DNA of 37,816 nt from a virus (taxonomy: Duplodnaviria; Heunggongvirae; Uroviricota; Caudoviricetes). This document shows, one piece after another, positions 22,593 through 26,877 of the stretch (position 1 is its first letter; the number at the start of each line of letters is the position of its first letter). A program made the position numbers and the translations under genes. The notes under the pieces were generated by a model. That model saw only the letters and a program-made list of their open reading frames with translations, was not told where the DNA came from and did no database searches. Location: positions 1-37,816 of the IMG/VR virus record IMGVR_UViG_2563366922_000008. One strand, given 5' to 3'.

Positions 22593-22879
22593 GACTTAAT
22601 CTTCCCCTCCTTCAGCAGTATCGCCTGCGTCCTGATCACGCCTTCGAGGTGGTAAAGTCTGGCGTCTTTGTTGTCGAGGTTATGGGTGCGTCGGTCGATT
22701 TCATCGTGACACGCGCTACAAGCCCATGCACCGATCAGGTCGTCAGGCTTCATTCCCGTTCCGCAAATTCCAGCCATCCGGTAATGTGCCAGAACTGTAG
22801 TTTCAGGGTTGCCATTGCATACGCCGTAAATACGTACCTGGCATTCTCTGCCGCGTGCTTCTTTGCGTAGGTTAGCCAT
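22589..22879 (-). CDS. ybcO: YbcO-like (DUF1364) putative nuclease
   Basis: 96-aa ORF MANLRKEARGRECQVRIYGVCNGNPETTVLAHYRMAGICGTGMKPDDLIGAWACSACHDEIDRRTH resembles E. coli DLP12 YbcO as recalled. Confidence 0.7.
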   Translation of the reverse strand: MANLRKEARGRECQVRIYGVCNGNPETTVLAHYRMAGICGTGMKPDDLIGAWACSACHDEIDRRTHNLDNKDARLYHLEGVIRTQAILLKEGKIKS

Positions 22880-23601
22880 TAAGCAGCCTCCCCTGTTACT
22901 TTCAGCATTCCGTTATCGAGCAGCTTTCTGGTCAGCCACTGTTGACCACGCCCGGTGATTTTTGTGGTGAACGATATCTGTATCCCGTGATTTGTGTTGA
23001 TCGCTGTTTCTTTCACTGTGAAATAGCCGCGATCCATATATTCCTGCATTGGCACATTGCGCCGGGAACCTGAAGCAATAAGGATTTTGTGATCGCGCAT
23101 CCACGCAAACAGTTTGTTTGGACCAATTCCAACAACCTTTGCAAAGTTTCCAATCAAAATTCCGCTGGCCTCGCCAACGCGATCGGCAAACTCAACTTTA
23201 GGTGCGGCAATTGCGAGCTGGTTTTCCAGTTGCATTTTCTTCTCAGCAAGATCAGCAGCAAGGCGCAACGCTTCCGGTAGCGTTTTGGGGATATTAACCG
23301 TAGTTTCTTCAAGCTCTCGCCAACGATCAACAAGACGAGCGGTGAATTCCGGCGACAACTGGGCTACAACGACAATACTGTCTCGCTTACCTTGTTCGCC
23401 CTCAAAAACGTAAGCCTCTACGCCACGAAGTAATCCTAAGTTATTGATTTTTTCGAAAACCACCATTGGGGGATTTCGGATCACACCTCGAGCCGCCAGT
23501 CGTTCAATAGATTGTTTCACCTTGTCATGACGACTTCCCACCAACTCAGCGATTTCAATGCTTGTCATTTTGATGGCGTTGCCATTTATTAACTCATTCA
23601 T
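22879..23601 (-). CDS. Phage antirepressor-like protein (Rha-like N-terminus plus KilA-C domain)
   Basis: 240-aa ORF; N-terminus MTSIEIAELVGSRHDKVKQSIERL (Rha/AntA-like), C-terminus ...NFAKVVGIGPNKLFAWMRDHKILI...YFTVKE...ISFTTKITGRGQQWLTRKL typical KilA-C. Confidence 0.75.
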   Translation of the reverse strand: MNELINGNAIKMTSIEIAELVGSRHDKVKQSIERLAARGVIRNPPMVVFEKINNLGLLRGVEAYVFEGEQGKRDSIVVVAQLSPEFTARLVDRWRELEETTVNIPKTLPEALRLAADLAEKKMQLENQLAIAAPKVEFADRVGEASGILIGNFAKVVGIGPNKLFAWMRDHKILIASGSRRNVPMQEYMDRGYFTVKETAINTNHGIQISFTTKITGRGQQWLTRKLLDNGMLKVTGEAA

Positions 23602-23770: not shown

Positions 23771-24110
23771 TATTGGCGTCCTGCATCAGGAGAAAGACAA
23801 TCATGGCGGCGCGGAGAGGTCTGGTATCAAATATTGGGCTTACGCCTTTTGCATCCACACACCATTCAGTTAACTGGTCTAAGATAGAAATCCTGTATTT
23901 CTCAATAATCGGCCATGAAGCGCTCGGATCATTGCAGTAGTCAGGCAAAGGGTTTAATGGCTCAAGACTTACATCGGCATTTCCGTAATACCATTTGTTG
24001 GTGTTATTCCCTGATGTTTCAGGCTTACATGCCCAAAGGCCTTTAAAAATTATGTCTCCTACCATTCGGTTAATTTCAAAATCACTTAACTGTGAATAAT
24101 CCATTGTCAT
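23763..24110 (-). CDS. Hypothetical nin-region protein (NinX-like by position)
   Basis: ATG at 24110 overlapping NinE stop (ATGA); [34 protein letters not shown]...; family uncertain. Confidence 0.5.
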
Positions 24111-24283
24111 TTCCTCGCACGATGTCTTAGCCACCGGATATCCCACAGGTGAGCCGTGTAGTTGAAGGTTTTTACGTCAGATTCTTTTGGGATTGGCTTG
24201 CGTTTATTTCTGGAGCGTTTCGTTGGAAGGTATTTGCAGTTTTCACAGATTATGTCGGTGATACTTCGTCGCTGTCGTCTCAT
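24107..24283 (-). CDS. ninE: NinE-like protein
   Basis: ATG at 24283 overlapping NinB stop; [58 protein letters not shown] resembles lambda NinE (or NinD) as recalled. Confidence 0.65.
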
Positions 24284-24690
24284 TCGTACCTCCTGTCGGT
24301 AAATCTGACACCCTGACCAATAGCCCAAGCTGTTGTGTACTCGATAAGACTTGCCATACGCTTCACACTCATCTGCGCGCTGCTTTCGCGAATGTTGACG
24401 TATTCGCCTTCAAGCCCAGGCAAAACATCAGCTTCCTGTTTTGTTGCCACTGCATGACCGCTGATCAACAAAACCTTCCATTGTTCCGGTTTTAACCATT
24501 TTCCGCACCATTGAACCTGACGTGCGATATCCGCCAGCATCGCGTGAAATTTTGCGTTCTGGTCAAGGTTGCGCTTGTAGTCAGTAATGCGGATGGTGAC
24601 TGGCTTGTCTTTATCGAGTGGTGTTGCGAGGATGGCATTTATTGCAGCTTGCTGTTGTTGCTTAGTTCGGAGGAAGATTGTTTGCTTCAC
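24280..24690 (-). CDS. ninB: NinB (Orf-family recombination mediator)
   Basis: 136-aa [24 protein letters not shown]...[32 protein letters not shown] resembles lambda NinB; apparent GTG start with AAGGAG 7 nt upstream. Confidence 0.8.
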
Positions 24691-24701
24691 TGAATACTCC
24701 T

Positions 24702-24887
24702 TTATTTTTTATGCCTGTAACCCCATTCTTCCAGCAACCTTGCGGCGTACCACCCAAGAAACAAAGGAAAGAACATTACAATGAGATATTCCCCGCCACG
24801 GTCAATGTTCGAAATTGACCAGATTACGATGTAACCAGTGCAGGACAGGAATATTACAAACCCCAAAAAGCTACTTCGTCGACTCAT
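24702..24887 (-). CDS. Small membrane protein (61 aa, two predicted TM helices)
   Basis: ATG at 24887 with AAGGAG 5 nt upstream; MSRRSSFLGFVIFLSCTGYIVIWSISNIDRGGEYLIVMFFPLFLGWYAARLLEEWGYRHKK. Confidence 0.45.
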   Translation of the reverse strand: MSRRSSFLGFVIFLSCTGYIVIWSISNIDRGGEYLIVMFFPLFLGWYAARLLEEWGYRHKK

Positions 24888-24889
24888 GC

Positions 24890-25204
24890 TCACTCCTTCA
24901 CTTTTATTCCAGCGGCGCGGATGTTTTCCTCATAAGCATCCATTGCATCACCGAAGCCATTGGAATAATCAACAGTAAACCCTTTGGCTAATGCTTCTCT
25001 GCTGTCGATAAACTTTGGCGCGATTATTTCAATAGCTGCTCGCGATGCCTGCCATAAAGCCCACCACTCATTTAAGGAGTGACGAATATCCATGCTTGAA
25101 AATGCAAAGTACCTATCACCATTTCGTGCCTCGGTTATCATCTCGAATGGTAATCTCAATTTTTTGGCAACGTATTCCTCAAACTGCTTTCTTGATTCGT
25201 CCAT
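24890..25204 (-). CDS. Hypothetical 104-aa nin-region protein
   Basis: ORF MDESRKQFEEYVAKKLRLPFEMITEARNGDRYFAFSSMDIRHSLNEWWALWQASRAAIEII...; ATG start. Confidence 0.5.
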   Translation of the reverse strand: MDESRKQFEEYVAKKLRLPFEMITEARNGDRYFAFSSMDIRHSLNEWWALWQASRAAIEIIAPKFIDSREALAKGFTVDYSNGFGDAMDAYEENIRAAGIKVKE

Positions 25205-25221
25205 CGATACTTACCCTCAAT

Positions 25222-25428
25222 TCAACTAACAAAACGCCACGCCATTTTTGCTACGACAACAGGCATAACACCGATAATCACCCAGACAAATGCAGCGCCA
25301 AACAACGTATACCATGGGTCTTTACCGTCATTCACAAGACGAATGTAGCTATGCAGAACAATAAAAAACGTCAGAAGAATCCATCCAACGCCAACGCATT
25401 TGAATGCGACGAGCATAAACTCAGCCAC
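25222..25428 (-). CDS. Small membrane protein (68 aa, two predicted TM helices)
   Basis: ORF (GTG start, GGAG upstream) MAEFMLVAFKCVGVGWILLTFFIVLHSYIRLVNDGKDPWYTLFGAAFVWVIIGVMPVVVAKMAWRFVS. Confidence 0.45.
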   Translation of the reverse strand: MAEFMLVAFKCVGVGWILLTFFIVLHSYIRLVNDGKDPWYTLFGAAFVWVIIGVMPVVVAKMAWRFVS

Positions 25429-25443
25429 GATTTACTCTCCCCC

Positions 25444-25477
25444 AAATAAAAAGGCCTGCGATTACCAGCAGGCCTGT
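25444..25477 (-). terminator. Rho-independent terminator after replication genes (tR2-like position)
   Basis: Perfect 8-bp inverted repeat aggcctgc...gcaggcct with U-tract on the minus-strand transcript, 25 bp downstream of the helicase gene stop. Confidence 0.5.
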
Positions 25478-25500
25478 TATTAGCTCAGTGATGTAGATGG

Positions 25501-26877
25501 TCATACGTCAGCCCCTTGTGCATATCGCCTGCCACGCGCAGCAGGTGCATTTGATGCTGTGCAAATCTGTCTGGCTTCATCCTGGTCACATGCAACAAAG
25601 TGTCCGTTGCAGAACCGCTGGTAAACCGTACCAAGTGAGCCAAAACGGTTTTTCGTCACGATGATTTCAGCAAATGGCGCGGCGCTACTGCTCTCGTCAT
25701 ATACCGCTTCCCGATAGAGCATGATGATTGAGTCTGCGTCCTGCTCAATGCTTCCTGAATCACGCAAATCTGCGTTTGTCGGGCGTTTGTTTGGTCGCTT
25801 CTCAACATCGCGCGAAAGCTGACTCAGGGAGATAACAGGCGTTTTCAGGTCTTTCGCCATCGCCTTCAGGCTTCCGGAGATGTGAGCAATTGCGAGGTCG
25901 TTGCGGTCTGCTTTCGGCTTCTCAATCAGGCCAAGATAATCTGCCATGATGAGTGACAGGTTTGGATTTTCCTGTTTGTGCCGTTCTGCGATTGAGCGAA
26001 TTTCTTCGACCGATAACCGCGAGGCATCGACTACCCATACATCCAAATCTGCAAGCTGACTCATGCCGTTAGCAACACGTGCCCAGCCCTCGTCATCCAT
26101 CGATGCAGGATTTCGCAGTACGCTAACCGACATCCTCCCGGCGTTGGCAATGCTTCGCTCTGCAATCTGCAATGCGCTCATTTCCATTGAGAAAATCAAT
26201 ACCCCGCGCCGGACGTCAGAACCAGGAATAACGCGGCTTGCAACGCCTTCGGCAATCTTCAGCGCCAGTTCGGTTTTCCCCATACCAGGACGAGCAGCGA
26301 TTATCACAAGGTCTTCCGCGTTCATCCCTCCGGTGATGGCATCAAGTTCTTCGATTCCGGTCTTCAGGGTATCTGACTCTTCTCCGTTCCTCAGACGCCT
26401 GTCAAGCGTGTCAGTGTAGTCAGTGATGATTTCCCCTAACCGTACAGGTTTAACCTCGTCACGGGGCTTTCTGATGGCTGAGAGACGTTTTACAAGTTCA
26501 TCCATCGCCTGACTCGATGCGTCGATGGTTCCGCTTTGGATTGGTTCACGCATTTCATCCATGATTTCCAGCACCAGACGGCGGTGATAGTTATCCGCGA
26601 CCATTCCGGCATATCCCTTCAGGTTTGCGGCACTCGGGCAGTTTTTGCTGGTCATCAGGATTGACGTGAAATGCTCCTCTCCGCACTCCTCGGCAACCAT
26701 CAGCGCGTCGATTAGGTTTCTGTTTCGCGCCTGCTTGCGGATAACCTCGAAGGCTTTCCGGTAGAGCGGAATTGAAAACGCTTCCGGCTCCAGCGTTGCC
26801 AGAACGTCGCTGGCGGTTGGAGTTAATCCACCAATCAGCAGGCCACCGATAACGCTCGCTTCGATATCCTGTCTCAT
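25501..26877 (-). CDS. Replicative DNA helicase, DnaB-like (P22 gene 12-type)
   Basis: 458-aa ORF with Walker [10 protein letters not shown], DnaB-type motifs ([35 protein letters not shown]); start overlaps O-like gene stop. Confidence 0.9.

Follow-up and report, generated by a model that had tools for sequence, protein, structure and literature searches.

We analyzed a group of small genes in the early-right (PR) operon of the virus record IMGVR_UViG_2563366922_000008 (IMG/VR; Caudoviricetes), whose entire sequence of 37,816 nucleotides (nt) is referred to here as the window. The window matched P22-like phages (Lederbergvirus) and other lambdoid phages of Escherichia coli and Shigella in mosaic pieces at 96–97% identity; relatives at that level include HZ41, Gally, Sf6, HK633, and CUS-3. 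The operon lies on the minus strand and runs from an O-type replication gene through a DnaB-type helicase gene and a locus of three open reading frames (ORFs) to ninB and more nin genes. As a preliminary description of the sequence had stated, ORFs of 61, 104, and 68 amino acids (aa) are present at this locus; they are called orf61, orf104, and orf68 here, and they lie on the minus strand between the terminator tR2 and ninB in the order orf68, orf104, orf61. The features of the locus, followed by those of its neighbors, with predicted transmembrane (TM) segments and Shine-Dalgarno (SD) sequences where found, are:

25442..25475, minus strand: tR2 intrinsic terminator, found by a terminator scan; 8-bp GC-rich stem AGGCCTGC/GCAGGCCT, 8-nt loop, and T-run.
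25421..25504, minus strand: ninA, a 27-aa hydrophobic ORF (phrog_5907, E=1e-18) with one predicted TM 19-mer.
25435..25443, minus strand: SD sequence of orf68, GGGGGAGAG, read from the sequence.
25222..25428, minus strand: orf68, a predicted 68-aa two-helix inner-membrane hairpin of phrog_1165; GTG start, SD GGGGGAGAG.
25222..25284, minus strand: last 20 codons of orf68 (49–68), WVIIGVMPVVVAKMAWRFVS and stop; an intragenic mosaic joint, located by windowed identity and an alignment against loci L089, L093, and L088.
24890..25204, minus strand: orf104, of the Phage_phiTE_015 family, its protein predicted to be soluble, acidic, and mostly helical; ATG start, SD GAGGG.
24702..24887, minus strand: orf61, a probable 61-aa small membrane protein; ATG start, with AAGGAG 5 nt upstream, within the last orf104 codons.
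24280..24690, minus strand: ninB (Orf-family recombination mediator; Pfam NinB, E=1e-55).
25501..26877, minus strand: DnaB-type replicative helicase gene, the final gene of the replication module (Pfam DnaB_C, E=1e-77; DnaB, E=2e-13).
27695-26874, minus strand: O-type replication gene.

The preliminary description had placed the ORFs directly after a post-replication terminator, where the nin region begins. This position was borne out, and the terminator is lambda tR2 specifically: by sequence comparison it is identical to the tR2 of lambda and of Sf6, and its RNA fold has a free energy of -16.1 kcal/mol (z=-2.4). The whole hairpin is contained in the ninA ORF. This 27-aa ORF shows identity to ninA of lambda and HK620, holds the tR2 hairpin, and lies right behind the replication genes; the HK620 and SPN9CC annotations likewise give ninA with tR2 inside it. 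The ORFs had also been described as the first genes after the terminator, which they are, but a third small hydrophobic ORF, NinA (25504-25421), had been missed. The surrounding ninA/tR2 block of ~76 nt is near-identical in lambda (where it is the ren-ninB spacer), in Sf6 (gene 45/tR2), in HK620, and in loci with unrelated replication genes, at least four different replication modules being represented; 70 columns are invariant over lambda, Sf6, and four further sequences. Set beside the NinA-tR2 blocks of lambda, P22, and HK620, the block in the window is virtually the lambda sequence. Of 80 related loci, 74 also have the exact tR2 hairpin in front of orf68. In published work, tR2 terminates with an efficiency of ~0.9, and the NinA start site is reported to be active, although translation of NinA reduces termination by only ~10% (PMC4824070).

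Gene packing across this region is tight, with stop and start signals that overlap or nearly touch. The ninA ATG overlaps the TGA stop of the helicase gene as ATGA, the ninA TGA stop overlaps the orf68 start (GTGGCTGA), and the SD sequence of orf61 lies within orf104. Such ATGA-type overlaps are shared with the lambdoid nin region in general, as is the gene order in the window: replication genes, ninA/tR2, accessory ORFs, ninB, ninE, ninX, and ninF. In lambda, the counterpart of the SD sequence GGGGGAGAG lies directly behind tR2 and serves ninB; thus, orf68, orf104, and orf61 together constitute an insertion between tR2 and ninB relative to lambda. Whereas ninB stands directly behind tR2 in lambda and P22, the window has three extra cassettes between them, and in Sf6 the same slot is occupied by different genes (46 and 47).

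The composition of this insertion varied widely among relatives. We compared 80 IMG/VR loci that carry a relative of orf68, 79 of them with ninB; this relative was the first gene behind tR2 in every case. In the 79 ninB loci, it was immediately followed by ninB in 11, separated from ninB by a phiTE_015-family gene in 45, and followed by an arrangement with orf61 in 23. orf68 occurred with a phiTE_015-family gene in 68 of the 79 loci and with orf61 in only 23. The replication modules in front of orf68 were of at least four kinds, comprising two DnaB types, a module without a DnaB hit, an IstB/DnaC type, and a Toprim primase-helicase type, and divergent orf68 genes were followed by DUF7301, HNH, or Lar-type genes. 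orf61 was found directly behind a helicase gene as well, with neither orf68 nor orf104 present. In an arbitrary sample of 74 tR2-carrying contigs, the first gene after the terminator was ninB in 38, orf68 in 17, a gene of the Sf6 gene-46 type in 6, a phiTE_015-family gene in 5, and another gene in 8. The interval between tR2 and ninB is a known, classic site of mosaic accessory genes in the nin region. The three-gene unit implied by the preliminary description, in which two membrane proteins flank the 104-aa ORF, did not survive this comparison: the co-occurrence in the 79 loci argues against it, orf61 occurs without its partners, and orf68 and orf61 are unrelated, a paralogous relationship being rejected by an hhalign probability of 0.4%. 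On balance, and with moderate confidence, we read the locus as three independent, nonessential accessory cassettes, placed between tR2 and ninB in the PR operon of a P22-like lambdoid phage. The cassettes are dispensable because lambda, P22, and Sf6 lack them.

Alongside the orf61 arrangements, we noted that a second phiTE_015 paralog follows orf61 in 6 of the 23. In these six loci (L025, L028, L042, L044, L074, and L080), two phiTE_015 paralogs flank orf61, and the order is orf68, phiTE_015, orf61, ~270 nt, phiTE_015, ninB.

orf68 is the best characterized of the three cassettes. It matched phrog_1165 over its full length (E=1.6e-38; residues 1-68 aligned to positions 1-68 of a 68-position profile). 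With a cut-off for a TM segment of +1.0 kcal/mol in summed Hessa free energy per 19-mer, orf68 contains two hydrophobic 19-mers, at residues 6-24 and 42-60, with sums of ~0 kcal/mol and Kyte-Doolittle (KD) peaks of 2.3 and 2.5. The window has 288 stop-to-stop frames of 50-120 aa, and of these only orf68 had two such segments; its two-segment character is therefore not due to chance. An AlphaFold2 model built with 17 relatives gave a helical hairpin (H2-33 and H38-67) with a predicted local distance difference test (pLDDT) score of 89. The positive-inside rule alone predicts an N-in/C-in topology, with a short loop that carries a conserved G-K-D. The preliminary description had assigned two hydrophobic helices to both orf68 and orf61, and for orf68 this claim held by Hessa energies, KD hydropathy, and the modeled hairpin.

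Relatives of orf68 formed 43 protein clusters at 50-100% identity, all 17 aligned full-length members being 68 aa long, and occurred in Escherichia (coli, albertii, and marmotae) and Salmonella. DNA of the orf68 type was present in 539 of 5,426 complete E. coli genomes (~10%). PHROG 1165 includes SPN9CC_0027, mEp235_046, Stx2-86 gp69-like proteins, and an unannotated HK620 ORF. orf68 shares with this family its full length (68 aa) and its slot right behind tR2, without substantive difference; the family has no assigned function, its genes being unannotated in HK620 and called 'hypothetical' elsewhere. When core codons 4-48 were compared with a divergent subfamily, the proportions of synonymous (pS) and nonsynonymous (pN) differences were 0.81 and 0.44, the strongest contrast of the six frames. 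The antisense frames had no such contrast, and a 134-aa plus-strand ORF (25045-25449), antisense to orf104 and orf68, was therefore dismissed as a shadow ORF. Codon-level conservation thus establishes orf68 as a genuine protein-coding gene, and its predicted product is nearly all membrane helix, with no soluble domain. Two other candidates were discarded on inspection: a match to T4SS_pilin (15.3 bits against a cut-off of 26.6) was a compositional match of hydrophobic helices, and a second terminator-like site inside orf68 (25392-25367) had only three GC pairs, occurred at a count within shuffle expectation, and had a T-run made of Phe and Ile codons.

Copies of orf68 were intact in 112 of the 121 cases fetched. 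One allele, G15*, in which codon 15 is an in-frame stop, recurred in eight IMG/VR loci (among L009-L088); thus, orf68 can be lost without removal of the prophage. The 3' end of the gene behaved differently from its core. Over the last ~60 nt, DNA identity between subfamilies was 97-100%, whereas the cores were only 40-57% identical, and pS was 0.15 as against 0.81 in the core. The ninA/tR2 block upstream of orf68 was likewise 97-100% identical between the subfamilies. Because the DNA of the invariant C-terminal motif is itself 97-100% identical, with a pS of 0.15, this motif appears to be largely shared or recombined DNA and not an independent constraint on the protein. The 3' end (25222-25284) might conceivably also contain an unrecognized nucleic-acid element. 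The conserved gene ends in this region, namely the 3' end of orf68, the 5' and 3' ends of the phiTE_015 genes, and the tR2/ninA block, are best read as putative recombination linkers for cassette shuffling. A protein of 115 aa from one E. coli genome (P0012), in which the first ~50 residues of orf68 are joined to the C-terminal part of NinX, is probably a chimera produced by a deletion across the accessory slot.

orf104, which the preliminary description had left unassigned, belongs to an established family, PF26207 (Phage_phiTE_015)/phrog_343, that includes Sf6 gp48. Its match to phrog_343 had an E value of 1.3e-26. Membership in PF26207 was read from the precomputed annotation of relatives and from naming by the Prokaryotic Genome Annotation Pipeline (PGAP): the domain was annotated on 120 of the 120 relatives listed, one of them 94% identical over 100% of its length, and in a 91%-identical locus the 104-aa gene bears the PGAP name 'phiTE_015 family protein'. 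Counterparts are Sf6 gp48 and 933W L0091. The protein has no hydrophobic segment, and its AlphaFold2 model was mostly helical (pLDDT 76). With this model, a structure search of the PDB gave nothing below E=7, and the best BFVD match (E=0.027, TM-score 0.33) was to uncharacterized proteins. A literature search found nothing on 933W L0091, PF26207, or phiTE_015. Family members have conserved ends (N-terminal MDESRKQFE...W..WQASR..IE; C-terminal IRAAGIKVKE) and swapped middles; orf104 is a member of PF26207/PHROG 343, set apart by a variable middle segment whose combination is its own. The last codons of the family (...KVKE and stop, AAAGTGAAGGAGTGA; 24887-24905, minus strand) double as the SD sequence of the next gene, which is orf61 here and ninB in mEp235.

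orf61 is a small ORFan. We took its ATG as the start, since an alternative GTG at 24893, which gives the 63-aa ORF of the program's list, is too close to the SD sequence. Its first TM segment is strong (residues 7-25, -0.55 kcal/mol by Hessa), so one of the two helices that had been claimed for orf61 stood. The other (~35-51), which contains a Pro and ends in Arg, is marginal: its KD peak is 1.7, and the same Hessa values, summed by hand, amount to ~+2.7 kcal/mol for its 19-mer, above the +1.0 cut-off. orf61 is likely to be a two-helix protein, although this is less secure than for orf68 because of the marginal second helix. Its loop reads SNIDRGGE, and its basic ends (MSRR... and ...RHKK) would fit an N-in/C-in hairpin.

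The gene occurred in 195 of the 5,426 complete E. coli genomes (3.6%) and formed only four protein clusters. No match was found in PHROG, Pfam, NCBIfam, or PADLOC. Several apparent relatives were rejected. Four matches from an exhaustive phmmer search of 1.84 billion representatives were judged spurious, the two inspected being long repetitive proteins, and a match to Acyl_transf_3 (15.4 against a cut-off of 31) was a compositional match of hydrophobic helices. RonA, a 61-aa membrane effector of the Ronin system, has a coincidentally equal length; BLASTP against RonA of E. coli D5 gave 6/14 identities (E=0.03 in a two-sequence comparison).

Expression of the three genes was considered from the signals around them. 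A scan of 24000-26000 for the sigma-70 consensus revealed no promoter-like site between tR2 and ninB; the only such site in this interval was at 24278-24249, fewer than shuffled sequences give. A terminator scan detected none after any of orf68, orf104, and orf61. PR is repressed in lysogens. Because the strong terminator tR2 lies upstream and no promoter of their own was found, the three genes are predicted to be expressed only by antiterminated PR transcription through tR2, as delayed-early genes that would be silent in the lysogen.

On this basis, N-type antitermination would carry PR transcription through tR2, and orf68, orf104, and orf61 would be made during infection or induction. Since orf68 and orf61 have no soluble domain, we infer that the two hairpins act within the inner membrane, probably through helix-helix contacts. 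Each hairpin would bind an inner-membrane component of the host or of an incoming phage during lytic growth, and the envelope of the committed cell would thereby be changed. Such a change could keep the DNA of secondary phages out. A precedent, by analogy only, is T4 Imm, a small inner-membrane protein made early that stops DNA entry of a superinfecting phage: the hairpins resemble it as tiny early membrane proteins with no soluble domain, but they have no sequence or profile similarity to it, and T4 belongs to another phage lineage. Binding of a membrane partner in lytic growth, for example to block entry of secondary phage DNA, is a tentative suggestion, the one that we prefer, to which we assign a minor share of the probability; perturbation of the membrane or modulation of lysis timing receives a smaller share, and the remainder goes to other or negligible roles of the hairpins.

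Several observations weigh against this account of independent cassettes carrying membrane-active hairpins. No homology gives the hairpins a function in PADLOC, NCBIfam, Pfam, PHROG annotation, Rfam, PDB, or BFVD. Profiles of PADLOC-DB 2.0 matched orf68, orf104, and orf61 with 0 families at E<=1, a structure search with the orf68 hairpin returned only generic helical hairpins (E>2), and in a sequence search of the PDB no match fell below E=0.14. A match to an NCBIfam model of cation antiporter subunit G (E=0.029) was another compositional match of hydrophobic helices. The literature searched held no functional account of small nin-region membrane proteins, no phenotype data for orf68 or orf61, and no evidence of translation of either; the C-terminal peptide of orf68 was not present in the supplements of an E. 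coli Sakai Ribo-seq paper on small genes. Lambdoid exclusion proteins described so far are, to our knowledge, made in the prophage state, something that a position downstream of tR2 does not permit. The promoter scan was a simple consensus search that weak or noncanonical promoters could escape. For orf61, in addition to its marginally hydrophobic second helix, near-identical copies differ almost solely by nonsynonymous changes.

Alternatively, the hairpins could oligomerize in the inner membrane and depolarize or permeabilize it. As such membrane-damaging effectors, they might resemble holins or pinholins, be small toxins, or modulate lysis timing. Class II holins and pinholins, such as S68 of phage 21, have two TM helices in an N-in/C-in topology, and orf68 is of similar length and predicted topology. 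Small residues (G, A, and S) are found in both orf68 helices, and the premature-stop allele in eight loci could reflect counter-selection of a toxic product. In contrast to these holins, orf68 has no match to a holin family, no location in a lysis cassette, and no long charged C-terminal tail, and it belongs to an early, not a late, operon. Searches of Pfam and PHROGs at E<=1 identified no holin family for either hairpin, nor any toxin family; the C-terminal tails are short and weakly charged, and the operon is far from the lysis cassette. Depolarization at an early stage would also hurt the phage's own development. With respect to a type I toxin-antitoxin arrangement, the consensus scan gave no antisense promoter-like site, and a search of both strands of 24200-25700 against Rfam (E<=1), which covers curated RNA families, gave no family, antisense and antitoxin RNA families included; an uncharacterized RNA could escape such a search. 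We consider membrane damage a doubtful explanation.

A more specific proposal concerns NinA. Many Salmonella prophages carry NinA and an orf68 homolog as one in-frame fusion protein of 93-94 aa with three predicted helices, while the tR2 hairpin remains intact inside the coding sequence. Examples are L221 (1501-1785) and the proteins P0013, P0014, and P0018; the fusion is listed in 55 blocks of the collection. These in-frame fusions are a weak 'Rosetta stone' hint that the NinA and orf68 peptides could work together. orf68, possibly with the 27-aa NinA, might then be a widespread, antitermination-gated membrane effector with a conserved inner-membrane target, and orf61 a second, young ORFan hairpin of similar role. 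The target may be a DNA-entry factor (ManYZ or PtsG), leading to exclusion in the lytic phase, or FtsH/HflKC, leading to an effect on the lysis-lysogeny decision. We regard this effector model as unlikely.

It is improbable that orf61 is not a real gene but a chance ORF in the mosaic spacer between the phiTE_015 gene and ninB. In favor of a chance ORF, the stretch matching orf61 bore no annotation in the 12 genomes listed out of the 195 E. coli carriers or in two inspected carrier loci, although some phage submitters annotate it; neither a PHROG nor a remote relative was found beyond its four clusters; and the second helix is marginal. Variation among close copies, being almost all nonsynonymous, points the same way, and for this reason the case for selection rests on one distant pair. 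This distant copy lies directly behind a helicase gene and is 72% identical, with 25% nucleotide divergence; despite that divergence and the different context, it keeps exactly 61 codons and has its own SD sequence, GGAGGAG. Between it and orf61, the synonymous (dS) and nonsynonymous (dN) divergences were ~1.0 and 0.19 (dN/dS 0.19; Fisher P=5e-6). In addition, the AAGGAG of orf61 is ideally spaced, all 34 copies fetched were intact (34/34), and the other reading frames are closed. This pattern of substitution marks orf61 as a genuine protein-coding gene under purifying selection. The conservation analysis suggested in the preliminary description thus had a positive outcome for both hairpin genes, with the pS-pN contrast in orf68 and the low dN/dS of orf61 against its distant copy.

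We also considered whether the hairpins are lysogenic-conversion or exclusion factors expressed from the prophage (morons), like HK97 gp15 or P22 SieA. Small phage inner-membrane proteins of this kind are the best-known precedent; HK97 gp15 and P22 SieA are expressed from the prophage and have their own promoters. orf68 and orf61 are comparable in being small lambdoid inner-membrane proteins, where the known pair is small to medium in size, but they differ in lying behind tR2, in having no promoter found, and in showing no homology. The genes begin 7 nt past the T-run of a strong terminator, within the coupled translation of an operon whose promoter is repressed in lysogens, and the scans gave them neither a promoter-like site nor a terminator of their own. 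Because tR2 lies upstream and no promoter was found by the consensus scan, a moron function is very unlikely.

Least probable of all is that the three ORFs form one system of membrane, soluble, and membrane components, acting in exclusion, abortive infection, or as a toxin-antitoxin module. In its favor, the three neighbors are closely coupled in the window, E. coli 55989 and 44 complete genomes have the same trio with 99.5% identity, and orf61 usually stands behind a phiTE_015-family gene in orf68 loci. Against it, the co-occurrence data show separate genes, with orf68 alone before ninB in 11 of the 79 loci, orf61 in only 23 of them and elsewhere right behind a helicase gene in the absence of both partners, phiTE_015 genes directly behind tR2 without orf68, divergent orf68 genes paired with DUF7301 or Lar-type genes, and no PADLOC match.

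Elsewhere in the nin region, a gene of 240 aa (22879-23601, minus strand) lies between ninF and the YbcO/RusA genes and is a further accessory insertion relative to lambda. Its counterparts are annotated as a KilAC-domain antirepressor in E. coli 55989 (PGAP) and as a Phage_pRha + ANT protein in related loci.

Taken together, the locus is an ordinary one: members of catalogued hypothetical-protein families and one young ORFan occupy a well-known slot, and nothing suggests a new kind of system. The practical value of the finding is modest. For annotation, orf104 gains a family name, tR2 is recognized in the terminator together with NinA, and orf61 stands out as a small conserved gene that bears no annotated feature in the E. 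coli RefSeq records inspected. orf68 is a common small membrane protein without prior study, is cheaply testable, and is carried by a large fraction of the lambdoid prophages of E. coli and Salmonella. If it is true that such a hairpin blocks secondary infection or acts on a host membrane machine, a lytic-phase membrane effector would be added to the lambdoid toolkit.

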